64,000 bases of DNA from Promethearchaeota archaeon (GTDB lineage Archaea; Asgardarchaeota; Lokiarchaeia; Sigyniarchaeales; SOKP01), in the NCBI GenBank assembly GCA_048941285.1, contig JBHLNS010000004.1, positions 2,896 through 66,895 of the forward strand, given 5' to 3'. The notes under the pieces are model-generated. The model had not been told where the DNA came from. It did not search any database and saw nothing but the letters and a program-made list of their open reading frames with translations. Positions within the stretch are counted from its first letter, which is position 1; every line of letters begins with the position of its first letter. This document shows positions 13,646 through 63,530 of the stretch, in pieces. A program made the translations under genes and the position numbers.

Positions 13646-14005
13646 TTATACAGCTAACGTTTCTTTTAATTTTCTATAAATATTATTTACTTTTGTTCCG
13701 ATCTCTTCAAATAAACTATTTTTTTCCTCTAATTCTTTTGATAAAATTGATAGATCCCCCGTTTCAGTGAATTCATTTAGCTTATTCTCGGTTAAACTCT
13801 GATTTAAAAAGAATGGAAAAAATTCTATTAATTGTTCTATTAGCCTTATTCTAAGTTCAATAATTTGCTTTCTCAATTCTTTTGGAGTAAGATAACCATC
13901 AGCTACTTTTTCAATTCCTTTTTTTAGAATATTTAATTGAGCCTCATCAAATATAATTTTTTCAAGCATTTCATAAAGTAAATCTTTTTTTAGTTCATTC
14001 ATCAT
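13646..14005 (-). CDS. small coiled-coil protein, last gene of the membrane operon
   Basis: Start ATGATG at 14005/14002 overlaps the stop (13995-13997) of the 1278-aa gene. The sequence is heptad-like and Glu/Lys/Leu-rich. Confidence 0.5.
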   Translation of the reverse strand: MMNELKKDLLYEMLEKIIFDEAQLNILKKGIEKVADGYLTPKELRKQIIELRIRLIEQLIEFFPFFLNQSLTENKLNEFTETGDLSILSKELEEKNSLFEEIGTKVNNIYRKLKETLAV

Positions 14006-17000: not shown

Positions 17001-17831
17001 TTCTATATAAAAAGTCCGTAAGGCATTGATCAAATGATTTCCAGAAAGAAGCATTACCTGAAAATGATGAAAATTACTGACGAGATTGCTTTTTAAATCA
17101 GTAGATTGCTTATTAATAAAATACTGTAAACGATCTAATTTATGCCGTGATAGAATCCCTTTTATGTCATAAAATACAGAAAAATATATTTTTGCTACCC
17201 TCGAATCTAATGAATTAATAGTAATCTCCCTTGAAGCATTTTCTTTAAACAAAGAAATAATGGGTTTTTGAACAATTTGATATGAGTAAGATAATCTTGT
17301 ATTTTTTGAACTTAATGCTTTAATAAATTGATGAATCGCTGAATGAACATTTTCAGGGATCACATTTATCTGAAATATTTTAATAGCAATATGAACAATG
17401 TCTTTTCGATTAGAAATATATAATGTTGTAGTATCTTTTTTGTTATGCCAAAAAATTAAATCCTCAAATGGGTTAAAAGAAACTTTATCTCTAAAAGTAA
17501 AAGGAATGAGATACCTCAATATATAAAACTCATCATAAAACACTACAATAAACAAAATTCCACATATAACACCAATGCTAGTAGATAGAATTAGATTTTG
17601 AGAAAAGATATACATTGAAATAATTAGAAATATAAATAAAATTAATAAAAACCCAGTTTTAACAATTGATAAATTATTATTTGTATCTTTAAATGAAGGA
17701 TTTACTCTCCAGATTTTTAAATATTTTTTCTTCTCTTGATTCTCCTCTATTACTGTATATTTTTTTCTGTTCTTATCATTATCAAAATCATTTATTCCTA
17801 ATGAGGCCTCATAAGTATAGTCTTTTGTCAT
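13995..17831 (-). CDS. giant membrane protein: 2x(TM hairpin + NPF-beta module) + FtsK/HerA/VirB4-like P-loop fold with eroded Walker motifs + helical C-terminal region
   Basis: 1278-aa ORF. It has two TM hairpins, each followed by related modules (NPFEDLIFW..TLYISNRKDIVHIAIKIF / NPFKNVLFY..SLFIHINNQVLIGMKMV). The central region follows the HerA/DUF87 template, but Walker A reads LIVNGSSENRD, Walker B reads FIIIPHIDIFF, and the sensor region reads GLIFSAHQ...NNVITLKATDSRD. Confidence 0.6.
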   Translation of the reverse strand: MTKDYTYEASLGINDFDNDKNRKKYTVIEENQEKKKYLKIWRVNPSFKDTNNNLSIVKTGFLLILFIFLIISMYIFSQNLILSTSIGVICGILFIVVFYDEFYILRYLIPFTFRDKVSFNPFEDLIFWHNKKDTTTLYISNRKDIVHIAIKIFQINVIPENVHSAIHQFIKALSSKNTRLSYSYQIVQKPIISLFKENASREITINSLDSRVAKIYFSVFYDIKGILSRHKLDRLQYFINKQSTDLKSNLVSNFHHFQVMLLSGNHLINALRTFYIEDESYQNGNESKKEYLKGFNGYFLGKFLIITVLIIYIDYVLFSINIFFLYIILVNLGFVLAFLLIWWRSLLFQFTKSRLLEDNDILITNPFKNVLFYYVKQFPFSLFIHINNQVLIGMKMVNLKYVYQNPFCLLSKFIESLNNHKISFSYTLKNQPINFYEFYKKGLKFINEKQKRLMLWKEETQIKDEIEAERWLGYRYGMWYSILTMTINSYKFVDLLEVTNFSELEEELIIQVNALKGAYNINFQSYEIEDLKRQNLISGFLFSTIKNNLFRLNGSHLNYVMLQGTSMYPLSTIVDILKKGTKTKIAAEFNTPLYLENFVTIGHTINTEVLEPEVPVGFTLGQLKKLLIVNGSSENRDLISMKIVSELVKTKISSVIFDFTGDWSKLYNYFEDSRFKEDILIFKYGSAFIIDPTKSDIPYDPHNTDYLEYVFDAFGLAFKKDERSVEMFRNTIQKNPDMDLGSIRMALQNQSDWEKSPISDTLLSLFSDFSHGDLSFFQGIQKDSILSNHFIQNRKTVIIDLSVIRDLNKKIFLTFIILAKFIHYVKNQGEHFKKFIIIPHIDIFFDSYFLDLKRNYDKVDLFLKPLFENNFGLIFSAHQIHYLHANFLLHFNNVITLKATDSRDISILRNLLNLQEIEGIGYYTRSRNQTYQIMYLKNMKNNEVLIRRDDIDQPFPAYVDWKAIKENNPLPYDKIISFMEQQGFDLKFTERKILEQAKKSLFEIDLGHYIIYLEEVIKFLDEIQTIDQIGNLYIHKLKTQLKEIIYPKASQKTNRKEHIKKIRDELLNIIIKHGYLVENHPRKASGSEALRTSYSVGERYQEALNDYYKTKGKTQTDINVEILEKATNKSGLTKIFQEKPRKYIVQKQSLKDALMRELSDFNYDIFKIYNYINNGDYSNALKIEHGLIKNFLMNILKHYYNIEKPISPDKLEEFLTFLEDIKDFPITKQELRDYIERYNVLNLETYNLESLAKEVYQFIYDFFIKIQHYIYEEDNDDE

Positions 17832-17832
17832 A

Positions 17833-18693
17833 TTATTTTCTCTCCTTTTTAAATAGTTTTATATAAATATATATCAAAAGAATGGTGCCTCCAAAGAGAA
17901 ATAGTGTCCAAAAACTTAATTCACTTGAATACATTGAAATGAAACTTAATTCAAAGAGTATTATAATTCCTATGGAAGCAATTAAAATAATTAATCCAAT
18001 GATGAAATATTCATATATATTTTCTATCGAGTTTTGATAATTTATATTGTTTTTGAGAGTACCTTGAATCGTTATTTTTCCTTTCTTATCATTTATTAGT
18101 GAATTTTTGATTGAATGTAAATGGATTGCTGTCTCAAATTGTTGGCTATTTAAATTATGTTGAAGACTTTTTTGAAGAGATAATTCTCGTTCTTTAATTT
18201 TTTGTATAATTAAAGGTCTTAAATTACTGGAATTTCTATCCTTTTTCTTAGCTCTGGGAGTTAAAAAAGAAAAGACTCCTAATGTAGATGTTTCTACGAG
18301 CTCATCATATTCTACGCGTTTATGGAGATTAAGAATATCTATTTTTCTTAAATCATAATATATCTGGAAGGTATTTTTAATGCATTCAAATGGAATGTCC
18401 CCTTTACTTTTAAGAAAAAAGATTTCACACTCTCTTAGGATTTCAATATGTTTTTGGTTGAAAATAGAAATTTTCAAATTTTTCTCAAATATGTCATTTA
18501 TCAACTCCATATATTCAAAAATCTTCTCTCCTGAACCTTTATTTCTTGGTCTAACACCCAGATGAATCCCAATTTCATTAACTTTATTACTGGTTAGGAT
18601 GAAACTCACGACAGCTAACTTTTTATAATTCTTATTTTCTTTGCAAACTTGTATTAAATTCTTCAGTTTAGCATCAATGATTTGTTGCTTCAT
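17833..18693 (-). CDS. membrane-anchored protein (soluble N-domain + C-terminal TM hairpin)
   Basis: 286-aa ORF. The C-terminus (FIIGLIILIASIGIIILF...FWTLFLFGGTILLIYIYI) forms two TM helices. Its stop lies 1 nt upstream of the start of the 1278-aa gene. Confidence 0.55.
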   Translation of the reverse strand: MKQQIIDAKLKNLIQVCKENKNYKKLAVVSFILTSNKVNEIGIHLGVRPRNKGSGEKIFEYMELINDIFEKNLKISIFNQKHIEILRECEIFFLKSKGDIPFECIKNTFQIYYDLRKIDILNLHKRVEYDELVETSTLGVFSFLTPRAKKKDRNSSNLRPLIIQKIKERELSLQKSLQHNLNSQQFETAIHLHSIKNSLINDKKGKITIQGTLKNNINYQNSIENIYEYFIIGLIILIASIGIIILFELSFISMYSSELSFWTLFLFGGTILLIYIYIKLFKKERK

Positions 18694-19418
18694 TTGTTTC
18701 CCTCTATGAATGTTGTTACAATATTATTGATATCATCTTTAGAAATTGGAGAATTAATTTCTTGATCTAACTCTTCTTCGGCGATATATTGATCTAAATC
18801 AATCAACTCTTGAGAATCTTGAATTATTTTGTGCATCTGTTTTTCTGGATTACGTTCTCTCTGAATAAAATTACTTATAGTTTTAAAATAAAAAATGGAG
18901 TAAGGGAAGATAAGAGGAAATGAAATTATTTGTAAAACATAACTAGGACCAATTGAATACCATATAATAACTTCTGAATCATAATTTCTTATGTTTAGAA
19001 GAGGATAGTAAAGTTCGTTTGGTATTAAATACATTAGCGGACAAATAATCAAATAAAATGCTAATAATAATAATATAAATCCGTTCGCATAGCCATATTT
19101 GTTATAAGTTTTAATTACTTTAGCTTTTTCAACATTTTTAAAAATTACGATGTATCCAGAAGTAAGTAATGCAATTAATAATAGGGCATTTATGACAAAA
19201 GGAATTGTAGCATTTACAGGTTTCATTCCTTCATTCAGAGGGGAAGCCTCAGTAAAAGGTGTTGCCCACCCATAAAAAAAATAATAACTCCAAGATACTA
19301 AAAGTTCACTATCAAAGTTATAAATTTGATATGAATACCACTCTAAAAACAATGAAAAAAATAGTAAGGTTAAACCTATTAAATAGATAATTCGAAAGCG
19401 ATGGATAATCTTGCTCAT
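18690..19418 (-). CDS. 4-TM membrane protein with acidic C-terminal tail
   Basis: 242-aa ORF with four hydrophobic helices. It overlaps the next gene by 4 nt (ATGA). Confidence 0.55.
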   Translation of the reverse strand: MSKIIHRFRIIYLIGLTLLFFSLFLEWYSYQIYNFDSELLVSWSYYFFYGWATPFTEASPLNEGMKPVNATIPFVINALLLIALLTSGYIVIFKNVEKAKVIKTYNKYGYANGFILLLLAFYLIICPLMYLIPNELYYPLLNIRNYDSEVIIWYSIGPSYVLQIISFPLIFPYSIFYFKTISNFIQRERNPEKQMHKIIQDSQELIDLDQYIAEEELDQEINSPISKDDINNIVTTFIEGNK

Positions 19419-19424
19419 GATTCC

Positions 19425-21422
19425 CTAATCCTCCAAAAATGAGCTATATTTTTCTACTAATTTATTCTTGAGGCGATTTTCTTTTGAATTCATTGATTGA
19501 AGGTTTTCATTTGATTCGAAAAGCTCTAAGCCTTCAATTTTTCTTTTACTTAATTTATTTCTAAGAAAATTTTCAGCATTTTTCTGCTCTATTTTATTTA
19601 TAATATTGAAATCGTTGTCTTTTTCAACACACTCGAAAACAAACTGTTCCATAAATCTTGTGCTTAGCTCTTCATTAATTAAGATGAGATTTGTCTCATC
19701 AAAATCTAATTTCTTTTGATAATAAGGTGTGGCAAATTCATATTGGAGTTCTGATTTCTGTTTATAAAGTCTTAGATAAATATATGCTATTAGAACAATA
19801 TAAAACGAAATTACACCATAACCTAAATTAATTAGGAAAGATAAAACTGAATACGCTTGGAATAATAATACTAATAAAAAAAAAAAACCATAAAGCATAA
19901 AGGGAGTTGAATATTTTCGTAAGTCTTTAATAAATTTATTTGAAGCTTTACAATGTAGATCCAATGCGTTCTTCTGTTCGCTATAAGTTTCTATTAGAAA
20001 ATGCTTTTGGTCAATGTATTGCAGGAAATCCTGTAGCTGGGATAGTGATAAAATATGTATATTTAATTGTTTTTGGTAAGCAAATGGAACAAGCTTTTCA
20101 GCAAAACCTACATTATTTCGATGTATTAATAATGGTTCAATTAAGATTTTATATTGAAGTGGTCCAGAGCGAAAAAAAAGTTTTTTGTGTGTAAAAGTTT
20201 TTTCCAGAAAAAGGTTGATATTTAAATATTTAGATAAATATCTAAAAAATCTTCCTTCATTTAACATATCTTCAAGAAGAACATCCTGGATATTTTTAAA
20301 TGCTTTTAAATATGATTGAGATAGTCTTTCTAACCTAAAATTCTGTTCAGTATAATTCCCTATAGATCGATATTTAATTGCATTACCTGATACAATAATT
20401 GAACCATTTAAAGAACTAATCTTTATAGGGATGATTAATATCAATTCCAAGAATTCTTTTACTCGGATGAGTTTAACTGCTAGGAGATCTATTCCAGTAA
20501 ATATCGTTCTTAATTCCGGACTTTTTTTAATTATAACAAATTCAGATAATTCAAGTTCTTTTGCAGTTTCCAAATAAATTTCCTGTAATTGAGAAGAATT
20601 TAAAGATTCACTAGAGATTGTATCTTGTTCCTGGACTTTAAGATTAGATTGTCGTAATAATTCTGGAGGGACAACTAGGAAGTTATTTATTTCCGATTCT
20701 TGGGATAATTCGGGATTATTTTTTTCTATTTTTTTTTCAGAAACATTAAAATTGCTAATTGATGCGCCATTATTATCAATCTCTTCGTAATCAAACTCCT
20801 CAAGGTTATCGTCATACCTTTCAAAATTCTCCAAACTATTTTCTAAAGGTTTAATATCAGATGTATCAATCTGTGGAGCATACCACTCTTCAGTTTCAGG
20901 TTTTTCAAATTTTCTTTCAAACCATCTATGTGATCCTTCCCCTGATTTTGATTCTTTGGTGTTGTCCAGATTTATCCTAATATTGCTTTTTTCTGGAAAA
21001 TCGTTTAATTTTTTTAGCCTTACATGCTGCTTCGCGTTTTCTATAAATTTTTGGGCTTTAACTATCCCAATACCATTAATCTGAGTTATTTTCTTTGGTG
21101 AAGAATATGCTAATTCTGAGATTGAACTAATACCAATTTCAGCAAGCTTTTCAGCAACTTTTAAACCAATACCATCTATTATTGTAAGGGATTCTCTTTT
21201 TATACTTGGATTTAAAGAGTTTTGTTGCGACACATTTGAATTAAATATATCAAATTTATCGATCCATTCACAATTCTTTTGCAATTTAGCTTCCCTAAGG
21301 CCATTATTAGATATTTTTAGCGCTTGATCTACATCATTTGCTTGAAAGGCTTCTTGTGCCATTTTGTAGTAGAACTTCAAATCCGATTTTTTCTGCATTA
21401 AACCATCTTGAGTATCAGTCAT
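19425..21422 (-). CDS. membrane protein with N-terminal TPR-like helix pair and tandem helix-hairpin-helix DNA-binding motifs
   Basis: 665-aa ORF with HhH motifs IDGIGLKVAEKLAEIGISSISEL and INGIGIVKAQKFIENA. An acidic linker follows, then a TM hairpin (FMLYGFFFLLVLLFQAYSVLSFLINLGYGVISFYIVLIAYIYL). First gene of the operon. Confidence 0.6.
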   Translation of the reverse strand: MTDTQDGLMQKKSDLKFYYKMAQEAFQANDVDQALKISNNGLREAKLQKNCEWIDKFDIFNSNVSQQNSLNPSIKRESLTIIDGIGLKVAEKLAEIGISSISELAYSSPKKITQINGIGIVKAQKFIENAKQHVRLKKLNDFPEKSNIRINLDNTKESKSGEGSHRWFERKFEKPETEEWYAPQIDTSDIKPLENSLENFERYDDNLEEFDYEEIDNNGASISNFNVSEKKIEKNNPELSQESEINNFLVVPPELLRQSNLKVQEQDTISSESLNSSQLQEIYLETAKELELSEFVIIKKSPELRTIFTGIDLLAVKLIRVKEFLELILIIPIKISSLNGSIIVSGNAIKYRSIGNYTEQNFRLERLSQSYLKAFKNIQDVLLEDMLNEGRFFRYLSKYLNINLFLEKTFTHKKLFFRSGPLQYKILIEPLLIHRNNVGFAEKLVPFAYQKQLNIHILSLSQLQDFLQYIDQKHFLIETYSEQKNALDLHCKASNKFIKDLRKYSTPFMLYGFFFLLVLLFQAYSVLSFLINLGYGVISFYIVLIAYIYLRLYKQKSELQYEFATPYYQKKLDFDETNLILINEELSTRFMEQFVFECVEKDNDFNIINKIEQKNAENFLRNKLSKRKIEGLELFESNENLQSMNSKENRLKNKLVEKYSSFLED

Positions 21423-21484
21423 AAGCGTTTTATAAGAAAAAATTATGAATCCGTTTCTGTTTAAAAAAACAATAATTATGTTGA

Positions 21485-21500
21485 TATTTAAAGAAAAAAT
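21485..21500 (-). promoter_or_regulatory. BRE/TATA-like promoter of the five-gene membrane operon
   Basis: The minus strand reads ATTTTTTCTTTAAATAT, ~62 nt upstream of the ATG at 21422. Confidence 0.4.
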
Positions 21501-21666
21501 TAGATAGAAGAAGATTTTTTCTTGATAAAGTAGTTGTCTTTTTTTCTTTAAATTAAATCATTTCTAAAACTACTTAAGGGAAATAGTAAACATTAAGTGA
21601 TCTATTATCGTTATAGTTTTTGGAAAAATAAGAGATATTAAAGAAGTCAAACATAAAGTACAAAAA

Positions 21667-21909
21667 GTGATTTGTCCTTTATGTAATGATAAGATAATTA
21701 TAGGCGTTGAAACTCAATTTACAAATAGAATTAATACAGATATCTATTTTCCACATATTCATTTACATGGAGATCCGCTTCATGCTTTAATATGTTATAT
21801 TAACTCTGAATTAAAAATAAGGAACCTAGGAGTTGTTAAGAGTATTGAGATTTCAAGAGATTCTCATACTTTTGGAGAGATAATGAAAAAATGGACTAAT
21901 CCATACTAA
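21667..21909 (+). CDS. small Cys/His protein upstream of the helicase gene
   Basis: 80-aa ORF with a GTG start and CPLC...HIHLHGDPLH. The frame stays open upstream to 21601 without a canonical start. It lies 21 nt before the helicase gene. Confidence 0.4.
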   Translation: MICPLCNDKIIIGVETQFTNRINTDIYFPHIHLHGDPLHALICYINSELKIRNLGVVKSIEISRDSHTFGEIMKKWTNPY

Positions 21910-21930
21910 TATCAAATTAGGTTAACATCA

Positions 21931-24468
21931 ATGGTATTAACAGATTTTACTGACAAAATTAAAAAAAAAGAGTTAGAAACTGAGGCTGAAAATGAGATCT
22001 TCAAATATGTATCTGATAAACGCATCCTAAGAGTGCTTTTTGAAGGAAGAATCTTTAGTTTACGGCAGATTCAAATTGATACTATAAAAATGGGATTATT
22101 TTTTCGAAAATCATTTTTAATAAGTGCACCTTCCGGGAGCGGAAAGACTCTAATTGGTGAATTATGTGCTATTAATAATATCTTTCAGAAATTTGGAAAA
22201 TCAATTTATTTAGTCCCATATAAGGCTTTAGCTACAGAAAAGTATTCTCATTTTAAGAAGAGCTATAGTCGATACGGAATAAAGATAGAGCTTTCTATAG
22301 GTGATTATGATGTGGATGACTCTAAATTAGAAAAAGCAGATTTAATAGTCACCACTTATGAAAAAATGGATTCAATTCTTAGAAATTTCTATGATAAAGA
22401 GTGGATTTTTAATATTTCGACTATAATAATTGATGAAATTCATATTATTGGTGAATCTGACAGAGGACCACGATTAGAGTCCTTAATAGTCAGGCTAAAT
22501 GAATTCCTTCATAATCCACAGATAATTGGACTTTCAGCAACTATAGCAAATGCAGAATTTTTTAATTCGTGGCTTTCTTCGCTTGGAAATAAAACAACTT
22601 TAATTAAATCAGATATTCGTCCTGTACCACTCCATTACAGAGTCGAAATTACCCAAAATAAAGATTCAACTATAAAAAGGTTTATTAGATCCACACTTGA
22701 AAAAAATGGACAAGTACTTATCTTTGTAAACCGTCGGAAAGGCGCACAGAAGGTAGCAGAGAATATTAAAACATTAGTTTGCAAATTTCTCGAAGAAAAT
22801 GAATTAAATATTTGCATGTCCCTTGAAAAAAGATTATCTTCAATTAAAGGAGGACATCGTGAATTGAAAAAGATCATAAAATCTGGTGTTGCATTTCATC
22901 ATGCAGGTTTACTTCCAAAGGAGAGAAAAATTATTGAAGATAACTTTAGAAAGCGCATTATTAAAGTAATCTGCTGTACTACAACACTCTCAGCCGGGAT
23001 AAATACCCCTGCTCGTGTTGTTATCTTGAAAGATTTTAAGAAGTATGTAACTTCTGGCCATAATATTAAGAACTTCTCAGGATATTTCGAAAATGGGGAT
23101 GGTTTTTCTTATTTTAAACCTTTTTCTGCAAACGAAGTATTTCAAATATTAGGGAGAGCTGGAAGGCCTGGACTTGATTCTGTTGGTTATGGAATAATTT
23201 TGGTTAAAAATATTGAAGAAAAAATGTGGGTTGAAGATCGATTTTTCCAAAATCATGTACTTAAAGACGTTTCAAAACCTAAATATAATGATCTCATTTC
23301 AGGTTTAAACAAGATAAATACTCTAAAAGAACAGGTATTATTAAGAGTTTTTGAGGAAAAAAAAATCACATTAGAACAGTTAAAACAATTTTTCGAAAAA
23401 ACCTATTTCTGGTATGGAATTAAAAGTAAAATGAAGGAACAGAAAATTCCTATTGAACAATTACTGATGATAAAGGAGATTACCCCCATCAATATTTTAA
23501 AGCTTCATACTGATGCTAATACAGTAAAAGAGTTAAAAGATAGTAATTACCAAATTAAATTAACCAATCTTAATGGTTCAAATATCTCTGCATATGTAAA
23601 AACTTCATTTGGGGTATATTATTGCCAATTTGATATTGAAACAGGAATTCAGTGTACATGTGGATTTAAGAATGGCATTTCTGATAACTTCGCAAATGAT
23701 GAATTTTCTTTCGAGTTTTGTAAACATATTACATCTTTTTTACTCTACTCCGTCCAGCTTCCCGATGCTAAATTTCAAAAGTATGTTGATTCAATCATTC
23801 CAAAATCAGTAAAAAACCAATATATCTTATCATATCTTTTTGAGAAAGGATTAATTTTAAAAGATAAGAAGGGATTAATCAGATGTTCTCATTTTGGCAA
23901 ATTAATAATCAGATTATATTTATACCCAGTTTCTGGTGTGATGATTAGGTATAAACTTGAAAATAATGAAATAAATACTTTTCAAGATTTGATTAAAGAA
24001 GCATTTGACATTTTGAAGGCAGAATTCCGCGTCAAAGACAATAAAATGCTACAGCCTATTTTAGAGTGGGCAGATGAGGAACCGATTGACCAAATTTTAG
24101 ATAAATATAATATTATGGCGGGAGATTTATTTTCTGTAAGAGATAATTTAGAACGAATTATCATATTTATCGGAATTATTGCTGGTAATTTAAGTACAAA
24201 CGGGATTGATCTCCAAGATAAGTTAATCAGAATCGCGGAAATGTGTGAAACTCTAAAAATCCGATTACACTATGGTATTCATGAAGAATTATTTGATCTA
24301 GTTTTAAGATTAGGTGACGTAGCACGCGTAAGAGCAAGAATATTATATAAAGCAGGATATCATACAGCTTCACAATTAAAAAAGGAAAATCCTTATGTCT
24401 TAAATCAAAAAACTGGCCTAGGTATAAATTTATGTAAAAAAATCATTATAAATAAGAAATCGAAATAA
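21931..24468 (+). CDS. Ski2-like/Hel308-family superfamily-2 DNA helicase with inserted SWIM zinc finger
   Basis: Walker A APSGSGKTLIGE, DEIH box (IIDEIH), SAT (LSAT), motif VI QILGRAGRPG and a C-terminal HhH-like RARILYKAGYHTASQL. At 845 aa it is about 130 aa longer than typical Hel308. The insert contains CTC-x21-CKH. Confidence 0.8.
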   Translation: MVLTDFTDKIKKKELETEAENEIFKYVSDKRILRVLFEGRIFSLRQIQIDTIKMGLFFRKSFLISAPSGSGKTLIGELCAINNIFQKFGKSIYLVPYKALATEKYSHFKKSYSRYGIKIELSIGDYDVDDSKLEKADLIVTTYEKMDSILRNFYDKEWIFNISTIIIDEIHIIGESDRGPRLESLIVRLNEFLHNPQIIGLSATIANAEFFNSWLSSLGNKTTLIKSDIRPVPLHYRVEITQNKDSTIKRFIRSTLEKNGQVLIFVNRRKGAQKVAENIKTLVCKFLEENELNICMSLEKRLSSIKGGHRELKKIIKSGVAFHHAGLLPKERKIIEDNFRKRIIKVICCTTTLSAGINTPARVVILKDFKKYVTSGHNIKNFSGYFENGDGFSYFKPFSANEVFQILGRAGRPGLDSVGYGIILVKNIEEKMWVEDRFFQNHVLKDVSKPKYNDLISGLNKINTLKEQVLLRVFEEKKITLEQLKQFFEKTYFWYGIKSKMKEQKIPIEQLLMIKEITPINILKLHTDANTVKELKDSNYQIKLTNLNGSNISAYVKTSFGVYYCQFDIETGIQCTCGFKNGISDNFANDEFSFEFCKHITSFLLYSVQLPDAKFQKYVDSIIPKSVKNQYILSYLFEKGLILKDKKGLIRCSHFGKLIIRLYLYPVSGVMIRYKLENNEINTFQDLIKEAFDILKAEFRVKDNKMLQPILEWADEEPIDQILDKYNIMAGDLFSVRDNLERIIIFIGIIAGNLSTNGIDLQDKLIRIAEMCETLKIRLHYGIHEELFDLVLRLGDVARVRARILYKAGYHTASQLKKENPYVLNQKTGLGINLCKKIIINKKSK

Positions 24469-24485
24469 AATAATACCTTTTACGC

Positions 24486-24761
24486 ATGGATTCTAAAATT
24501 GAAAAGAAAAACAATATAAGGATACAAGATTCACAAATTTCTGACAAAAATTCAAGAAACTCAGAGAATAAATCTGAAAAAATAGTAAATGAAAACATCG
24601 AAAGTTTATGTGATGAAAATCTCACTACTCTTAAGAAAATCCATGCAATTTTATTAAATTGCCTTAATCTTTCCAAACAACAGAAGCTTGAGTTTTGTGA
24701 AAGTGAAAGGTATTTTATGAAATTATATCTAAATAAGTTACAAAATAAAAATAAAAAATAA
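24486..24761 (+). CDS. hypothetical low-complexity protein
   Basis: 91-aa ORF 17 nt after the helicase stop, Asn/Lys/Ser/Glu-rich. Coding status is uncertain. Confidence 0.3.
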   Translation: MDSKIEKKNNIRIQDSQISDKNSRNSENKSEKIVNENIESLCDENLTTLKKIHAILLNCLNLSKQQKLEFCESERYFMKLYLNKLQNKNKK

Positions 24762-24911
24762 AATCAAACTTGAATTGCTATTAAAGCTTTTATCCAATTG
24801 GTGTCTATAATGATCATCCTTAAAACTGCAATTTCATTCCAATTGATTTTTTATATAGATAATAGGGTCATTATTATAGAAAAATTATAATTTTAACAAA
24901 AGGTTTTAATC

Positions 24912-25130
24912 ATGAGTTCTCAATCATTAGAAAAAGCGGAATTAATACTCCTAAATTTTGAGACCTATAAAGAGGACTCTATAAATTTTAATGAGATTAT
25001 AATTCCTTTTTCTAGGTTTGGCATATCTAAAAGTCCAGCATATATTTATGAAGGGCTTGAGAATATTGCATTCAAAGAAAGACATCCATTTTATAGATCG
25101 ATTCTTTTAGACGAGTTTGTTGAATTATGA
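24912..25130 (+). CDS. small conserved protein, tandem paralog 1
   Basis: 72 aa. Shares IIPFSRF..........Y.G.E.I.F.ERHP.Y......EF with ORF 25223..25462. Confidence 0.5.
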   Translation: MSSQSLEKAELILLNFETYKEDSINFNEIIIPFSRFGISKSPAYIYEGLENIAFKERHPFYRSILLDEFVEL

Positions 25131-25168
25131 GATTAAGTCAAAAAAAATCATAAAATCTCATACGACTC

Positions 25169-25188
25169 AATATTTTTCTTTATATAAT
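25169..25188 (+). promoter_or_regulatory. BRE/TATA-like promoter element
   Basis: AATATTTTTCTTTATATAAT, ~35 nt upstream of the ATG at 25223. Confidence 0.4.
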
Positions 25189-25222
25189 TTTGATTTTATC
25201 CTGTATTAAAAGGTGAAAAAAT

Positions 25223-25462
25223 ATGAGCTCAAAATCATCAGAAAAAAAACACCAAAAAATACCAATTCAAGATTTAGAGCAACCTCTGAAATTAACTAAT
25301 GCTGTCATTCCCTTTTCTAAGCTTACTATACCTGAGAAATTTATCTATTACGGATATGAAAGAATTCCCTTTCATGAAAGACACCCTGTTTATCAAACGC
25401 TCATAAAGAGAGAATTTGCTGAAGGAATTAAAGATTTTATAAAAATAATTAAAAAGAAATGA
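25223..25462 (+). CDS. small conserved protein, tandem paralog 2
   Basis: 79 aa, paralog of 24912..25130 (VIPFSKL...YGYERIPFHERHPVYQTLIKREF). It has its own TATA-like element and a GGTGA Shine-Dalgarno-like site. Confidence 0.5.
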   Translation: MSSKSSEKKHQKIPIQDLEQPLKLTNAVIPFSKLTIPEKFIYYGYERIPFHERHPVYQTLIKREFAEGIKDFIKIIKKK

Positions 25463-25475
25463 ATTCGATTTGGAT

Positions 25476-26000
25476 TTAAACCTTTAATTTATAGTAATAA
25501 TCACCATTTATTCGTTTCAAAACGCCTTGTTTCTTTAGTTTTCTTGTTAATAATTTTACTTCTGATTTCGGAATATTGTAGTTTTCTGCCATTATTTCAA
25601 TAATATAGTAAGGAAAAGTATTATAAGCTTTAGATAAGTTATATAGCATTTGTTTTAATTTCTCAGAATAATTATAATCATTAAAATCAATATTAATTGC
25701 ATCTTTTTGACTTTTTTCCCTTCCAACTACTCTGAAATCTTCTGATGTTCTAAATACAGGTTCTGAACCCAACTCTTTTATTGCTAACTCATTCTGCTTC
25801 TTTTTCACTAATTCTATTGCATTGGATATACCTTTTATAATTTCACTTCGTTCTATTACGTTATTAACTTTATGAATATAACCACACCTAATACATTTCT
25901 TCGTCTTTTGAGTACTTTTTGCATAAATATAGTTATGACATTTTCTACAAGAAAATATCAAATAAGGAGTTTCATCTTTTTTCCAAATTATATCTTCCAA
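25476..26000 (-). CDS. zinc-ribbon protein (DUF1922-like) with C-terminal winged-helix-like region
   Basis: CRKCHNYIYAKSTQKTKKCIRCGY ribbon. The C-terminal KLLTRKLKKQGVLKRINGDYYYKL is wHTH-like. TTG start 6 nt after the Hef stop. Confidence 0.5.
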   Translation of the reverse strand: MEDIIWKKDETPYLIFSCRKCHNYIYAKSTQKTKKCIRCGYIHKVNNVIERSEIIKGISNAIELVKKKQNELAIKELGSEPVFRTSEDFRVVGREKSQKDAINIDFNDYNYSEKLKQMLYNLSKAYNTFPYYIIEIMAENYNIPKSEVKLLTRKLKKQGVLKRINGDYYYKLKV

Positions 26001-26006
26001 AGTTGC

Positions 26007-28178
26007 CTATTCCTCCTGAGGATTTTCTAGAATATTTTTTATAATAAAATATAATTCTTCTTCATTATCGATAACTATTGCCTGAATTTTTTGTTTTTTG
26101 GCAAATTCTTGTATTTTTCTCGCAATAACTCTCTTCTCTCCCTCGATATTTTGAGAAAAATCGATAAAGTCAAAGACCATGATGAAAAGTGAAGAGATTT
26201 GCTTAAAATCATTAATATCTCTTATTAGGTTTACTAAATTAAAACCTTTAGGATCGTAGATCTGGATAAGAATCTTGTTATGAATGATTATATGATGATC
26301 AGATTCTATAATATCATAAAAAATATTATCACTTTGGAGTCTTTTTCTCAGCCCGAATTTCATGGGTAAAAATTTACTTATTTTTAAATTATTTGTTATA
26401 TTGGGAGGATCAATTTTAGTCGATTCTTGCATAAATGATTCGATTTTAGATTGGTGCTGTCTTGGTTCTATTACTTTTCTCCGCAATTCCACTAGTTTAG
26501 GCTCTTTCTTAGATTTTTTAATGGTTTTCTCATTTTTAATAATAGCCATCTGATCATTGACGGGGCTATATTTATATGAATCTTGTAATTGTTTAGGATT
26601 TTTCAAATGTAAATTCATCCTTTTGAGTTTATTCATTGCAATTCTTAAATATATTTCGTCTCGCGTGTCATTACTATAAAGAATAACGACTTTACCCTCA
26701 CGATGTCTTGCTGTTCTTCCTTTCCGCTGAATGAATCTTACATCTGAAGCAACTACATCATAAAATATAACTAAATCACATTCAGCAATATCCAGCCCTT
26801 CTTCACCGACGTTTGTCGAAATGAGAACATTATATTGCCCCTCTTTAAAGTTATCTAGAATTTCTATTTGCTTTTTTTGGGACATTCCTTTATCATCAAA
26901 TGATTTCGTGGTTTGCCCCACAAATCTTACTGCATTAATTGAAGGAATTTTTTGAAGTTTTTTTGTTATATTCTTAACGGAATTACGCAACTTCACAAAC
27001 ACTAAAATTCGAGAATGAGGATTATTCTTCAATTCTTCTAAAATAATCTTAACCAAAACATAATACTTCGGATGAATCAACATTTCAGGAGAAAATTCAA
27101 CATTTTTCTTTAATTCTAAAAATATGCGATATAATCGCCCATCTGATGACAATATTTTAGTGGCTTTCGAACTACTTTTCTTCTTTGCGTCTCGATGAAG
27201 TTTATTAAAATAATCTAATAATACATCGAGCCCTTGCTGCTCTACTAATTCAAGCATATGAAATAAAATTAAAGCCTGTGCATTAATCGATAAAGCGCTA
27301 TAAATTCCTGTTTTGTCCCCATTGCTTTTTAACTCATTTACTAATTCTGAATTTAACTTTAATAAATCTTTCCTGATAACTTTTGTAAGTAATTGTTCTC
27401 CTTTTATTTCTAAAAAATTGAGTTGAGAAAGGTAATGCAATCGTTCCTCTAATACAATCGTGAGCAATTTATATACATCTTTCATTAGACTGGTTAAATC
27501 GACTCCAATTTTGTATATATCCATTGGTTTGAGATAATTCTTTACATCTTCGTCTTTTCGTGTTCTGATATGAATATTTTCTATAGGAATATGCAAATTA
27601 TTACATAATACGGTAATTTTATTTTTTGAAGCTCCAGGTGAAGCAGTCAGACCTAATATTATTCCGTCGGGATTATGATCGACAAATTCATCAGCAATCA
27701 TCGTATAAGGATAATCTCCAGTCCCATGATGAGCTTCATCAAAAATCACTAAAGCAGTATTTGAGAGGGAATACTTTTGATTCACTAAATCGTTTCTTAG
27801 AGTCTGAGGAGTGTAAAATAATATTTGATTTTGATGAAAAATATCAATCCTATGCTCAGGAAGTACTTTTCCTGTAAGAATTGCATATTTATTTTCAGGA
27901 ATCTTAAGAAATTTTAAGAATGTATGATAATGCTGATCTATTAATGGCCTGGTAGGGGCAAGGATAATAACTTTACTATCAACTGGGAACATTTCTATTA
28001 TTTTACCAGCAACAAGAACCGCAATTATCGTTTTACCCAACCCTGTAGGAAGTACAACTAACGAGTTCTTTCCAGCACATTGTTCTGCGATTTTTTCTTG
28101 GTATTCTCTAACCTCTAATTCACTCGAGTCTAATATCGATGCGCTTTTTTCTACAGTTAGCCTTATCTCACCCATCAT
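26007..28178 (-). CDS. hef: Hef/FANCM/Mph1-family SF2 helicase with C-terminal ERCC4-like domain lacking catalytic residues
   Basis: PTGLGKT Walker A, DEAH (FDEAHH), TASPG and motif VI QRKGRTAR. The C-terminal ~135 aa keep the XPF/ERCC4 topology, but I could not find the GDY/ERK residues. There is no (HhH)2 tail. Confidence 0.75.
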   Translation of the reverse strand: MMGEIRLTVEKSASILDSSELEVREYQEKIAEQCAGKNSLVVLPTGLGKTIIAVLVAGKIIEMFPVDSKVIILAPTRPLIDQHYHTFLKFLKIPENKYAILTGKVLPEHRIDIFHQNQILFYTPQTLRNDLVNQKYSLSNTALVIFDEAHHGTGDYPYTMIADEFVDHNPDGIILGLTASPGASKNKITVLCNNLHIPIENIHIRTRKDEDVKNYLKPMDIYKIGVDLTSLMKDVYKLLTIVLEERLHYLSQLNFLEIKGEQLLTKVIRKDLLKLNSELVNELKSNGDKTGIYSALSINAQALILFHMLELVEQQGLDVLLDYFNKLHRDAKKKSSSKATKILSSDGRLYRIFLELKKNVEFSPEMLIHPKYYVLVKIILEELKNNPHSRILVFVKLRNSVKNITKKLQKIPSINAVRFVGQTTKSFDDKGMSQKKQIEILDNFKEGQYNVLISTNVGEEGLDIAECDLVIFYDVVASDVRFIQRKGRTARHREGKVVILYSNDTRDEIYLRIAMNKLKRMNLHLKNPKQLQDSYKYSPVNDQMAIIKNEKTIKKSKKEPKLVELRRKVIEPRQHQSKIESFMQESTKIDPPNITNNLKISKFLPMKFGLRKRLQSDNIFYDIIESDHHIIIHNKILIQIYDPKGFNLVNLIRDINDFKQISSLFIMVFDFIDFSQNIEGEKRVIARKIQEFAKKQKIQAIVIDNEEELYFIIKNILENPQEE

Positions 28179-28791
28179 TAATCACCATAAATGTATGATT
28201 ATCTATAGTTATGTTTTGAAACTGTTTATTGCTTTTATTGTAAGAAATAATCACTTCTCCTAATTTTAATCCTAAGTTAGAAGGGTATACTACACAATTT
28301 CCTTTTGTTTCAAACAAATATGGGTGTGTGTTCCTTAATTTCTTAACCTTTGATAATAATTCAGAGCCATTCTTCACAATATCAAACCCCTTGCCTCTAT
28401 TAACATGCTTAAAGATATAGATAATATCGTTTAATAGTTTTATATGGGAATTTGATATATAGATTGTTGGTGGGATTTCAATTTTTTCGTATTCATCCTT
28501 TTTATCAGTAATTAGATAAACTTGATTATTTGCACGATATTTTCGTATTTGGTAATTTTTAAAAACATTTTCAAACTTTTCTTGAAAATTTAGTAATAAG
28601 GATATAATTTCGTCTGTCTGAGACTGAGGGATTCCCAACAGTTTTATTAGTTTGCTAAAATTGAACTTTCTATCATAAAAGTTCTCGAACTTTCCTAGAT
28701 AATCCACCATTTGGTTTAATACTCTAAGAATCTTTCGAAATTGCTCTGTATTATAATCATTAGTATTATTAGTATCTGAGGCTAAAGTCAT
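28168..28791 (-). CDS. hypothetical protein, possible HTH + beta-rich (WYL-like?) regulator, co-transcribed with hef
   Basis: Overlaps the hef start by 11 nt. HTH-like FSKLIKLLGIPQSQTDEIISLL. The domain guess is weak. Confidence 0.45.
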   Translation of the reverse strand: MTLASDTNNTNDYNTEQFRKILRVLNQMVDYLGKFENFYDRKFNFSKLIKLLGIPQSQTDEIISLLLNFQEKFENVFKNYQIRKYRANNQVYLITDKKDEYEKIEIPPTIYISNSHIKLLNDIIYIFKHVNRGKGFDIVKNGSELLSKVKKLRNTHPYLFETKGNCVVYPSNLGLKLGEVIISYNKSNKQFQNITIDNHTFMVINDG

Positions 28792-28837
28792 CAAATATTA
28801 ATAATTTATTGAATGAATAAAAAGGAAAAATTTAGCT

Positions 28838-31750
28838 TTAATTATTTTTAGATTCTTTTTTCAACTTTTCTAGCTGCTTTGATGATATTATAAAAACTAT
28901 TCCAGGTACAGCAATAAATATTATCGTTAATGGAATTGCTCTAGCAATATCCTTCTTATAGCTTTCTGAGATTTGATTTACATCAAAGAAAACACTTTTA
29001 ACATTAATTGGGGAACCATAGATCCCATCATTGATAAAAAGTTCGAATTTGTATTCTCCAGTCATACTTGGATTATAAATAATGCTGAACATACTATAAT
29101 CAGAAAAATCTTCATGAATTGCGTGAATCTCATCTAAATATTCATTATTTCTATAAATTTGAGCATAGGATCTTCCAGAAGTTAATGGAAACTTCTCATA
29201 ATTAGCCAAAATTGAAACATTGATCTTAAAGAGTAAACCATTCAAATCGGAATGGTAATTTATTTCACATTCTAAAGTATAGTTAGTTGAAAATGAGATA
29301 TAAAGCTCTGCCTTTACCTGCATTCCCTCATATGCTCTTAGATATCCTTCGATTAGCGGGTAACAATCTGAGTTTATTGGAATTGGGATGTTATACACAT
29401 ATGAATTATTAGAGAGTTTTGAAAAAACAAAGCTCCCAATCTGTTCACTTTCAAATTTGAATGTAATATAAGTACCAAAATCCCTCAATATAAGATTGTA
29501 GAGTGATACTTCCATATGATTTAAACCCCCTAATTGGCAAGTATCAGAATGTCGTGCGTCAATTCCGATATCACTAGTTCGTGCCATTTCACAAATCCAG
29601 AAAAAGATCTCTTGATTCAGTATTTCTTTATCTGTAGTAAAATAGAATTCATTAGAATTATCTGAGAAAATATCCTGAACTAGCGCTTGAATCTTATGAA
29701 AATTAAACTCAATATTTAAATTTAGAAGTTCTGAAAGCTTATAGCTGTAGTATATGTTTTTAATATTGGAATAGTTAAGATTTGTTTCAACATAATTTTT
29801 AATTTTCTGGCTGTTTTTATTAAATAAGTTGAGCACTTTCAACACATAGGTCATAAAATAAGTGGTTTTTAAGATAGTTGCAACGTCATCAGCATATTTT
29901 GGACTAAAGTAAAGCATTGTAGAGGTTTCAATCAGATTTCTATCGATATAATTATATATTGCAGTTATATCAAAACCAATTTCAGCAAAATTCAAGCCGA
30001 GATAATTCCCAAGAAGTTCTAAACATTTTATAGCATAATAAGTATAATCGCAATAGATTTTGTTATTAATAACCTCAGATCTATCCTTAGTATATTTTAA
30101 AATGGAAGTGAATCCGCCAAAAGTATCATAATATGTTGTATTTAAAAATTGAGTTTTTACTATATCATTCATTAAATCCATTAAATCAAAAGAATTAGCA
30201 AAATCATCTAATTTGAAAAGCTTCTCTAAAGATTCTAAGGCATAGTATGTAGATTGATGAGAATTTATTTGATCAATCTTATTTATGTAAATCTTATGTC
30301 CCGAAGTATAAAACTCTATTGGATATGAACGAAACCACTCAATCATTGTATCTTGTCTTAGATATCCATTAAAATATCGCGATATATCATCAGGCGGGTA
30401 ATCTCTATATGAATTTTTAATAGCTCCATACAATTTTTGGATATTCAGATCCGAAATTCTCGTATATAAATCAAAGGAACTAACAACAGTATGGATAAGA
30501 TTCATAGAATTATAGTCTTCAGATAAGAGTGAAAAGGCTATATAAGATTGGTAATATAAAGTAGCATTCCCAATGAGACTTCTATCACCTTTTGATAATT
30601 GGAATATTTCATTTGTATTATACAATGAACGAATAATTTGATATGTATCTATAAGTTCATGGATAGCAACTGTGGTTGACTGATCCCAGTTCCCTAAAGA
30701 GTTACGATGGTTTAGAATAAAAGAAACAGTTTCAGTTGTATTTATCCCTATAAAACCGGTAATTACTGAAAGTTCTAAACCTATCGACGTTGCAACAATA
30801 TTAGTGTAATTCAATCCATAATCTAAGGCAGATATCCGAAAATAATGAGAATCTGGATCATAGAGATAACTAAGAAATTGGTAAAAATCTACTTCATTAA
30901 TACTAGACACCATTCCAAATACTTCTAATGTTTTTATACAATAATATGAAGAAATGAGATTGGGCTCATAATGAAATAAGAGAGAATCGAAACTTTCATC
31001 TTCATCATTTTCAAATCCTCCTACAGTCCAACCCATTCCTTCTGTAAGTTGGAGAGCGTTAATAAAAGATATAATACTCGCTCTCTGCGAAGAATATCCA
31101 AACCAGTCGTCCATCAATAAATCTAATGTGATCACAGCAAAATAAGTATTATCTGCCGTTGCTATTTTATATCCGTCTTCTAAATCTGCATTATACTGGC
31201 GTCCAATAAACCCACCGGTTGAGGGATTAAAACAACTCCAGATAAAATCTATAATTTCTGAGACATCGATTAAATATAACGCATCTAACAATTCTAAAGA
31301 AAGAATCGCATAGCATGTTACCTCCAATACCGTGCTCAATGGGAAATATGACTTTGTAAAATCGGTATCCAAATATCGATATGCTAAAGTGTCCATAAAG
31401 TGAGTACTATCATCTTCATAGTGATCCATGATATAATTTATTATCTTAGATTGGTTTATCTCATGTAATTTTCCCACCCTACTTAGCGTATACAAAGCAT
31501 AATAAGTTGCTTGTAAAGAAGGTTCATAGATTTGGGGAAAATATCCAGCATCATAATAATCTGCCACTTTAGAATTAAATACATTATCTATGAGTCTCTT
31601 ATTACTCACCTCGGACATTTGAGTGATTTCATTAAAATCACTTAAAGAATAATTACTTGAACTATTGGTAAAAGGCTGAGTGTAAATAATATTACTAAAA
31701 AATAAAATTCCAATAACACTACAAATGAATATGACGGGTTTCAATTTCAT
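28838..31750 (-). CDS. large cell-surface protein with prenyltransferase/terpene-cyclase-like alpha-alpha toroid repeats, N-terminal signal/anchor and C-terminal TM anchor
   Basis: At least nine repeats of the type QATYYALYTLSRVG, EVTCYAILSLELLD, DNTYFAVITLDLL, SSYYCIKTLEVFG, QSTYYALESLEKL and DYTYYAIKCLELLG. The C-terminal beta-rich region is followed by a TM helix and a basic tail. The ATG at 31750 is preferred to the TTG at 31762. Confidence 0.55.
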   Translation of the reverse strand: MKLKPVIFICSVIGILFFSNIIYTQPFTNSSSNYSLSDFNEITQMSEVSNKRLIDNVFNSKVADYYDAGYFPQIYEPSLQATYYALYTLSRVGKLHEINQSKIINYIMDHYEDDSTHFMDTLAYRYLDTDFTKSYFPLSTVLEVTCYAILSLELLDALYLIDVSEIIDFIWSCFNPSTGGFIGRQYNADLEDGYKIATADNTYFAVITLDLLMDDWFGYSSQRASIISFINALQLTEGMGWTVGGFENDEDESFDSLLFHYEPNLISSYYCIKTLEVFGMVSSINEVDFYQFLSYLYDPDSHYFRISALDYGLNYTNIVATSIGLELSVITGFIGINTTETVSFILNHRNSLGNWDQSTTVAIHELIDTYQIIRSLYNTNEIFQLSKGDRSLIGNATLYYQSYIAFSLLSEDYNSMNLIHTVVSSFDLYTRISDLNIQKLYGAIKNSYRDYPPDDISRYFNGYLRQDTMIEWFRSYPIEFYTSGHKIYINKIDQINSHQSTYYALESLEKLFKLDDFANSFDLMDLMNDIVKTQFLNTTYYDTFGGFTSILKYTKDRSEVINNKIYCDYTYYAIKCLELLGNYLGLNFAEIGFDITAIYNYIDRNLIETSTMLYFSPKYADDVATILKTTYFMTYVLKVLNLFNKNSQKIKNYVETNLNYSNIKNIYYSYKLSELLNLNIEFNFHKIQALVQDIFSDNSNEFYFTTDKEILNQEIFFWICEMARTSDIGIDARHSDTCQLGGLNHMEVSLYNLILRDFGTYITFKFESEQIGSFVFSKLSNNSYVYNIPIPINSDCYPLIEGYLRAYEGMQVKAELYISFSTNYTLECEINYHSDLNGLLFKINVSILANYEKFPLTSGRSYAQIYRNNEYLDEIHAIHEDFSDYSMFSIIYNPSMTGEYKFELFINDGIYGSPINVKSVFFDVNQISESYKKDIARAIPLTIIFIAVPGIVFIISSKQLEKLKKESKNN

Positions 31751-31799
31751 TTTCTCTACCAAAAACTGTTTCTTGTATGTTTAACTACCATTCTTACTA

Positions 31800-62663: not shown

Positions 62664-63530
62664 TTATTTTTTTGCAGGAGAAGCATAACAATAATGACAA
62701 TTATGCTTACACCGAAAAATTCCAGTATAACCTCCAATATCTTTCGATTTAGAGCATCCACAATCTTTTCTCTGACCTATATCCTTTATTTTAGGTATTT
62801 GTTCACCCACAATCTTCTCAATTTTATAAGCATCGATACAGTGTGCTTGATCAATTCCTTCTATATTATGTAAGTCTGGTTGGCAACACGCCTTCATTTT
62901 AATATTATTCTGGGCACAAATATCTATCATGTTATTTAGAATCTCTATTTTCTTTTGAAAAGGGGGATCGATTGGAGTATATCCCCTAGCATTCATACGA
63001 TTCTTCACTTTTTCATAAATTGTTGCAAAAGAAAAAATCATTTCTGTCAACCCTAGTTTCGAAACGTTCTCAATGATATATTCAAATTTATCTAAATTAC
63101 TTTTTATTGTATTAGAACCATGCTTTTTATAGACAATTATTGGATCAAACCTGAAATTAACTGCTAGTAAACCAAATTCATTGATTAACCATTCTAATTG
63201 CTTAAACCTCTGTTCTAAAGAAATTTTCACATTATTTTCTAATTCTGAGGGGGAATTAATTGTGAATTGGAAGGAGTGCCCTTTATACTTTTTAAATAGA
63301 TTTTCATTTTCGTTAAATTTTTTGATCCAATCTTCAAAATTTTTAGACCACCACACCCAACATTTAACATCCTCCGATTTTAAAGAAATTCGAGATACTT
63401 GTTTCTTATTAAAAGGATTCGCTACATCTACATATCCAATTTTTATATTATGAATAACCCAATCCATTAAAAAAGCAGGTATATCCGTCCTCCGACTACA
63501 AGATATAATAGGAAATTTTATTTCTCTCAT
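62664..63530 (-). CDS. DUF1848-family protein (Cys-rich C-terminus)
   Basis: N-terminus IISCSRRTDIPAFLMDW...NPFNKKQVSRISL and C-terminus CGCSKSKDIGGY..CKHNCHYCYA. Confidence 0.6.
   Translation of the reverse strand: MREIKFPIISCSRRTDIPAFLMDWVIHNIKIGYVDVANPFNKKQVSRISLKSEDVKCWVWWSKNFEDWIKKFNENENLFKKYKGHSFQFTINSPSELENNVKISLEQRFKQLEWLINEFGLLAVNFRFDPIIVYKKHGSNTIKSNLDKFEYIIENVSKLGLTEMIFSFATIYEKVKNRMNARGYTPIDPPFQKKIEILNNMIDICAQNNIKMKACCQPDLHNIEGIDQAHCIDAYKIEKIVGEQIPKIKDIGQRKDCGCSKSKDIGGYTGIFRCKHNCHYCYASPAKK

Follow-up and report, generated by a model that had tools for sequence, protein, structure and literature searches.

What is the additional segment that interrupts a Hel308-type helicase of a Lokiarchaeal genome, and does its pattern of cysteines and histidine make it a SWIM zinc finger? 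The stretch of DNA under study, hereafter the window, covers 64,000 nucleotides (nt) of contig JBHLNS010000004.1 from a Promethearchaeota archaeon (assembly GCA_048941285.1, positions 2,896 to 66,895; G+C content of ~29%). It encodes a superfamily 2 (SF2) helicase of 845 amino acids (aa) with 100% identity to a public record entitled "MAG: DEAD/DEAH box helicase [Promethearchaeota archaeon]", MAG standing for metagenome-assembled genome. Human HELQ and the helicase domain of POLQ have their archaeal relative in Hel308, and few known lineages are closer to eukaryotes than Lokiarchaeia. A preliminary description of the window, made from the letters alone, had proposed that this helicase carries a SWIM finger. 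Our analysis indicates that the protein contains a cleanly bounded, lineage-specific insertion of 123 aa with an invariant Cys-Cys-Cys-His (CCCH) signature, that this insertion is found across Asgard helicases, and that it probably descends from the SWIM family.

The boundaries of the insertion were defined by HMMER alignments to solved Hel308 structures. Residues 29-506 of the protein align to residues 9-456 of Pyrococcus furiosus Hjm (2ZJ2) and residues 630-678 align to Hjm residues 457-505. Since positions 456 and 457 are contiguous in Hjm but their counterparts 506 and 630 are far apart in the window protein, residues 507-629 constitute a clean insertion, and the same boundaries were obtained from the alignments to the Sso (2VA8) and Afu (2P6R) Hel308 sequences. 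The sequence that resumes at residue 630 (QYILSYLFEKGLI..GLIRCSHFGKLIIRLYLYP) aligns to Hjm 457-505 and to residues 477-523 of Sso Hel308, a stretch of Hjm that we take to comprise the recognition helix, the wing and the start of the ratchet. Because of this match, the alignments place the insert inside the winged-helix (WH) domain, ahead of the recognition helix, and not after the winged-helix region as the preliminary description had it. The additional length of about 130 aa given there agrees with what we observed: the protein is ~125-145 aa longer than the solved Hel308/Hjm chains (699-720 aa).

The insert carries a predicted metal-binding signature, C575-x-C577-x19-C597-x-H599, which corresponds to the SWIM-type pattern CxCxnCxH and reads QCTCGFKNG...FCKHITSFLLY in the translation. 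The four residues and their coordinates had been correctly assigned before, but the spacer between C577 and C597 had been counted as 21 residues; it is 19 residues long in the window protein and 19-21 residues long across the family. Based on the composition of the long open reading frames (ORFs) of the window, 0.015 matches to C.C.{6,25}C.H are expected by chance in 17.9 thousand amino acids. Only one other match was found in the window (CGCSKSKDIGGYTGIFRCKH), in a DUF1848 protein (Pfam, 2.2e-67; 62664..63530, minus strand). C575, C577, C597 and H599 are invariant in all 120 homologues sharing 69-100% identity with the window protein. When 35 inserts were aligned, down to ~20% identity, these three cysteines and the histidine were the sole invariant columns of the insert; the conservation of C565 is lost in distant members, and the insert possesses no further conserved cysteine. 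Column conservation of the insert (0.755) approaches that of the RecA2 (0.79) and ratchet (0.80) domains, and it is highest within the insert over the spacer loop (0.83). Judged by these columns, the insert is nearly as conserved as RecA2 and the ratchet and is under purifying selection, and its spacer loop could serve as an interaction surface.

We then determined how widely the insert is distributed. With a profile of the insert, HMMER was run exhaustively over the representatives of 1.84 billion protein clusters and recovered only 18 clusters at E<=1e-3; every full-length member of these clusters is a helicase of 839-863 aa with the insert at the same place. Using an alignment of closer homologues as query, we scanned a single genome for each GTDB species and obtained 63 loci. 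All come from Asgard MAGs, mostly under the label Promethearchaeota or Promethearchaeia and in a few cases under Hermod-, Hod-, Odin- or Thorarchaeota. The motif is kept in all 63 loci, with a spacer of 19 residues in 54 of them and 20 residues in the other 9; together with the chance expectation of 0.015, this retention rules out a chance motif. One of the distant clusters corresponds to the cultured Promethearchaeum syntrophicum MK-D1, which is represented by two near-identical entries (QEE16306.1 and QEE17768.1). These sequence searches indicate that the insert is restricted to Asgard helicases and is common within Lokiarchaeia (63 species representatives).

Some side observations concern this distribution. 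In several Lokiarchaeal genomes, the helicase with the insert is present in two or three copies: the MAG CSMAG_616 (loci L031, L039 and L041), ABR11 (L053/L055), CSMAG_2743 (L038/L046) and P. syntrophicum MK-D1. Loci L031 and L032 present none of the usual downstream neighbours, which suggests that their helicases are paralogues located outside the conserved neighbourhood described below. One member of a distant cluster bears the name "Patescibacteria group bacterium" in its deposited record (HMB66297.1); since every other relative with a name is Asgard, this is probably a binning or labelling error.

The predicted structure of the insert was examined with two models. A full-length AlphaFold model reached a predicted local distance difference test (pLDDT) score of 58.9 overall and was confident over the insert. 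An AlphaFold2 (AF2) model of residues 503-634, built from a diverse alignment, reached a pLDDT of 84.2 and a predicted template modelling (pTM) score of 0.81. In order, the model presents three short helices, a four-stranded antiparallel sheet, the loop with the metal site, and two helices that lead back into the WH domain. The first of these two helices (residues 598-609) starts at C597/H599, and the long return helix spans residues 613-626 in the insert model and 613-630 in the full-length model. Part of the spacer loop (residues 583-590) is modelled with a pLDDT below 50 and is predicted to be partly disordered. In the models, the CxC pair lies at the end of the fourth strand and the CxH pair at the N-terminus of a helix, which is the arrangement of SWIM.

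Beyond the signature and the modelled architecture, several signals that are faint but agree with one another point from the insert to SWIM. The Pfam SWIM profile PF04434 (38 positions; gathering cut-off of 19.6 bits) is the sole Pfam family matched by more than one member of the insert family, and the alignments that it produces cover profile positions 13-37, from the CxC pair to the CxH helix, in register. We also used hhalign to compare the insert alignment to a reference alignment of ZSWIM7/SWS1, one narrow family for which 22 real sequences were recovered with a probe sequence. The comparison scored 19.1-19.9 (P=0.012-0.02, against this single narrow family) and brought the upstream strand, the CxC pair and the CxH pair of the two alignments into register; only 3 of 300 column-shuffled insert alignments reached this score. 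In addition, Foldseek was used to search BFVD, a collection of predicted viral structures, with the insert model; rank 2 (E 0.015, probability 0.99, template modelling (TM) score 0.36) went to a viral "SWIM-type domain-containing protein", and another such protein came at rank 36. In the structure of Shu2, the SWIM motif follows a beta-sheet, tolerates a spacer of 59 residues, binds zinc and mediates protein-protein contacts (PMC5727457).

A number of results weigh against homology with SWIM and against the reading built on it. PF04434 gave no match at E<=10 on the window protein, whether used whole or as three isolated segments; taken strictly, the profile search by which the preliminary description wished to see its proposal judged thus speaks against it. 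Two of the 35 family members presented sub-threshold scores of 11.8 bits (E 0.19) and 9.5 bits (E 1). Deleting the low-confidence loop raised these two members to 17.3 and 14.5 bits, still below the cut-off, and the loop-trimmed window protein and all other members still gave no match to the profile. Since trimming rescues no other member, the long spacer is not the sole reason why the Pfam SWIM model fails. No SWIM match was obtained from NCBIfam, from PHROGs or from a profile search of PDB sequences, and the hhalign support amounts to P ~0.01 against one narrow family. On the structural side, Foldseek of the insert model against the PDB yielded a best E of 0.17, no sensible neighbour and no retrieval of Shu2. 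The BFVD matches have E >0.001 and TM scores of ~0.36-0.43, and the full-length AlphaFold model is too poor to place the insert relative to the motor.

The searches of other families gave little. NCBIfam and PHROGs produced nothing recurrent or meaningful on the 35 insert sequences, and a profile of distant inserts retrieved only chance matches among PDB sequences (Eag channel, uL6) and no SWIM entry. The annotated SWIM protein YehQ of Escherichia coli, used as a seed against the PDB, returned no matches either. We considered a remnant of an intein or mobile element; the family searches gave no transposase or intein match, and no search aimed at intein motifs or repeats was made. With regard to the Pfam model, many accepted vertebrate orthologues of ZSWIM7 (e.g., those of platypus, Monodelphis and Xenopus) carry no precomputed PF04434 match, and this model is therefore insensitive. 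SWIM itself already occurs fused to SF2 ATPases, as reportedly described by Makarova et al. in 2002.

The alternative that survives best is that the insert is a lineage-specific, zinc-stabilised novel fold in which CxC...CxH arose independently and resembles SWIM without homology. Short metal-binding motifs converge easily, and such an origin would fit the failure of the curated profile even on loop-trimmed sequences, the lack of a structural neighbour in the PDB and the fact that no library searched matches the whole 123-aa module significantly. However, three independent weak signals (PF04434, hhalign and BFVD) point to SWIM and to no other family, and the Pfam model likewise misses accepted members of ZSWIM7. 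We consider an independent origin unlikely, while granting it a real share of the doubt, and we regard homology of the insert with SWIM as probable. The preliminary description thus stands for the signature and the predicted architecture and falls for the score of the Pfam profile, with homology resting on the three signals above.

Overall, we lean towards the interpretation that the protein is a Lokiarchaeal Hel308 in which a divergent SWIM-like zinc module serves as an arch-like accessory domain of the WH domain with a role in docking. The 123-residue domain would have been inserted between the first helices of the WH domain and its recognition helix, and would fold independently as a compact alpha/beta module. 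At its core, we would expect a tetrahedral Cys3-His metal site, most likely occupied by Zn2+. The module would represent a SWIM-type finger with a long spacer that has diverged past recognition by the curated profile. Its zinc site would be structural, stapling the sheet to the helix and presenting the conserved spacer loop. The module may project from the WH domain on helical connectors, in topological analogy to the arch of Mtr4/Ski2, and would probably offer a docking or recognition surface. Because the insert is uncharged (net charge ~0), a protein partner or a structural role would be favoured over a basic nucleic-acid clamp. Such a module would steer a 3'-5' Hel308-type motor to substrates of replication forks or recombination repair, possibly together with a Hef-like helicase encoded nearby.

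This interpretation depends on the identity of the helicase. The protein matches the Pfam families DEAD (1.3e-28), Helicase_C (2.9e-11) and the archaeal helicase domain 4 (PF21280, Helicase_dom4_arc), the latter over residues 694-756 with 27.8 bits for a cut-off of 27 bits. Its top match among PDB sequences is Hjm (1.6e-85), followed by the cassettes of ASCC3, Slh1 and Brr2 (1e-80 to 6.5e-75) and then by the Sso and Afu Hel308 (1e-74 and 8.5e-69). Family-invariant motifs include motif I PSGSGKT (67-73), DEIH (168-171), SAT (202-204) and Q405 with GRAGRP (408-413). PF21280 and the alignments to Hjm show that the winged helix, the ratchet (domain 4) and the C-terminal helix-loop-helix (HLH; domain 5) are all present. 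These matches identify the protein as a Hel308/Ski2-like helicase, in line with the preliminary description. The NCBIfam Hel308 models match it at 1e-98 to 4e-120 but with less than half of their equivalog cut-offs (NF002654: 402 bits for a cut-off of 887; NF040935: 331 bits for a cut-off of 1200). By these profile scores, the helicase therefore belongs to a divergent Hel308 subfamily and is not an equivalog of the curated models. A second lineage-specific feature was observed between motifs V and VI, where the region aligning to the strand-separating hairpin of Hel308 is ~18 aa longer than its counterpart in Hjm; its column conservation (0.88) places it among the best-kept stretches of the helicase.

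The same scores could be taken to indicate an RNA helicase of the Brr2/ASCC3/Slh1 lineage whose insert recognises RNA or ribosomal partners like the arch/KOW of Mtr4/Ski2. Indeed, the cassettes of ASCC3, Slh1 and Brr2 score near Hjm and above the Sso and Afu Hel308, the curated equivalog cut-offs are far from reached, and the insertion shares its host domain with the arch. Yet the architecture is Hel308-like, with a match to the domain-4 model, a C-terminal HLH aligned to Hjm and no match to Sec63/FN3. Furthermore, the insert is not basic and has no match to the arch model (PF13234), and the conserved neighbour of the gene is a Hef-like repair helicase. We therefore hold an RNA helicase to be improbable.

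This neighbour belongs to a gene order that is kept around the helicase in ~40 of the 63 Asgard loci (17833..31762 in the window; loci L002-L064). The order comprises two ORFs without assigned family, a 665-aa helix-hairpin-helix (HhH) protein, an 80-aa ORF, the helicase, a 91-aa ORF and two paralogous small ORFs. It continues with a DUF1922 zinc-ribbon protein, the Hef-like helicase, a 208-aa ORF and a 974-aa prenyltransferase-toroid protein. The locus of the 90%-identical helicase homologue (L065) presents the same neighbourhood. The Hef-like helicase is kept in the vicinity of the insert-bearing helicase in 41 of the 63 loci; its ~200 C-terminal residues gave no match to the ERCC4/XPF nuclease of Pfam. 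Because of this neighbour and of the Hel308 architecture, the association favours a role in fork repair or recombination.

A bolder version of the docking hypothesis would make the insert a true SWIM protein-docking "arch" that tethers the helicase to repair factors of the RadA-paralogue or Hef type, as a counterpart or antecedent of Shu2/SWS1-SWSAP1. If true, it would provide an archaeal link to the eukaryotic partnership between SWIM proteins and Rad51 paralogues, in the lineage closest to eukaryotes; we view it as a long shot. Least probable of all is that the Cys3-His site binds an iron-sulfur cluster as a sensor of redox state or damage, comparable to XPD, DinG or the 3Cys-1His sites of the mitoNEET type. 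Three cysteines and one histidine would suit certain 2Fe-2S sites, strict anaerobiosis is the lifestyle of the hosts, and other repair helicases hold iron-sulfur clusters. Against this, the adjacent ligand pairs of CxC...CxH are the zinc signature of SWIM and hold zinc in Shu2 (PMC5727457), the CDGSH motif is not matched and there is no extra conserved cysteine. Returning to the proposed SWIM-like module, the features of the helicase that hosts it and of the neighbouring genes are collected in Table 1.

Table 1. Location of the helicase, its domains and insert, and selected neighbouring genes in the window
Feature	Position (nt)	Strand	Basis or remark
Hel308/Ski2-like SF2 helicase gene	21931..24468	+	845 aa
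RecA1 (~residues 41-235) and RecA2 (~236-455) motor domains	22051..23295	+	Pfam DEAD, Helicase_C; invariant columns
RecA2 hairpin region, residues 367-400	23029..23130	+	alignment to 2ZJ2
Winged-helix domain, N-terminal part, ~residues 456-506	23296..23448	+	matches Hjm as far as residue 456
Lineage-specific insertion of 123 aa, residues 507-629	23449..23817	+	HMMER alignments to solved Hel308
Predicted four-stranded beta-sheet b1-b4, residues 541-575, ending at the CxC pair	23551..23655	+	AF2 models
Predicted CCCH metal-binding signature (SWIM-type CxCxnCxH)	23653..23727	+	
Spacer loop between CxC and CxH, residues 578-596, GFKNGISDNFANDEFSFEF	23662..23718	+	
Winged-helix domain, C-terminal part (recognition helix and wing), residues 630-655, QYILSYLFEKGLI...GLIRCSHFGK	23818..23895	+	aligns from Hjm 457, Sso Hel308 477
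Ratchet (~residues 656-780) and C-terminal helix-loop-helix/HhH domain (~781-845)	23896..24465	+	PF21280; Hjm 573-694 = residues 706-837
80-aa ORF	21667..21909	+	starts CPLC, holds HIHLH; its end is separated from the downstream helicase start by 21 nt
Two small ORFs in tandem, 72 and 79 aa	24912..25130, 25223..25462	+	no Pfam match
Hef/FANCM-like helicase	26007..28178	-	DEAD, Helicase_C, Hef-type helical bundle PF21210
1278-aa ORF	13995..17831	-	no Pfam family at E<=0.001

Among the smaller genes of the neighbourhood, the 80-aa ORF is kept in 28 related loci and, judging from its sequence, may encode a co-transcribed small metal-binding partner. The ORFs of 72 and 79 aa are paralogues of one another (37% identity, E 2e-12) and adjoin the helicase in ~40 loci. 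The 1278-aa ORF is also found upstream of the helicase neighbourhood in L065.

The literature that we searched linked neither SWIM nor any reported insert with Hel308, nor SWIM with Asgard helicases. Pfam annotates SWIM in none of the 120 close homologues, and the 90%-identical homologue has not even a faint SWIM match on record. This agrees with the preliminary description, which was aware of no SWIM insertion in characterised Hel308 enzymes; the survey of homologues suggested there revealed an insert that is common in Lokiarchaeia, with its 63 species loci, yet unannotated. What is new is a lineage-wide, unannotated, SWIM-like and probably zinc-binding insertion in a helicase of the known Hel308 family, not a new kind of system, and lineage-specific insertions in the accessory domains of helicases are not rare. 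A survey published in 2024 reported no Hel308 for 13 of the 15 Lokiarchaeota genomes that it considered, and judged this absence questionable (PMC10946056). Its filter demanded that a single RPS-BLAST hit cover 60% of COG1204 (PMC10946056), and an insert of 123 aa that splits the alignment and defeats such a filter could be the cause of the reported absence. Public records give no annotation for the insert, and automatic pipelines therefore miss it at present. The Lokiarchaeal Hel308-type helicase always comes with an extra, strongly conserved and putatively metal-binding domain at the WH domain, and four point mutants and one clean deletion would offer a concrete handle on how accessory domains retarget Ski2-like motors.

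Compared to known systems, the protein shares with Hel308/Hjm (2ZJ2, 2VA8, 2P6R) the plan of five domains (RecA1, RecA2, WH, ratchet and C-terminal HLH) and all SF2 motifs. It differs by the CCCH insert in the WH domain, the longer RecA2 hairpin and an N-terminal extension of ~20 aa. With SWIM (PF04434; ZSWIM7/SWS1, Shu2 5XYN, the N-termini of bacterial SNF2 proteins, MuDR and MEKK1), the insert shares the CxCxnCxH pattern and, in the predicted structure, the strand before CxC and the helix at CxH. In contrast, its spacer of 19-21 residues exceeds the usual 6-16 residues (PMC5727457), its motif is internal to an accessory domain of a helicase instead of forming a terminal module, and it has no neighbour among solved structures.

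The WH domain also hosts the arch of Mtr4/Ski2 (PMC10946056; PMC4731217). Both arch and insert are accessory globular modules placed in the WH domain of a Ski2-like core, joined to it via helices and dispensable for the core fold. The arch, however, measures ~260 aa, contains a KOW beta-barrel and lacks a metal site; the insert is 123 aa long and has a CCCH site. Pfam scans of the helicase, its segments and the insert family gave no match to the arch (PF13234) or KOW. The two are likely of independent origin, and the likeness would be an analogy at the level of the host domain. Finally, ASH-Ski2 is an archaeal Ski2-like helicase with an N-terminal zinc finger of four cysteines (PMC10946056). 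It resembles the present protein as an archaeal Ski2-like helicase with an acquired zinc-binding accessory element, which is predicted in our case. The finger of ASH-Ski2 is a C4 N-terminal extension in the subfamily of COG1202, whereas the CCCH element described here lies inside a protein of the Hel308 subfamily as an internal insert.

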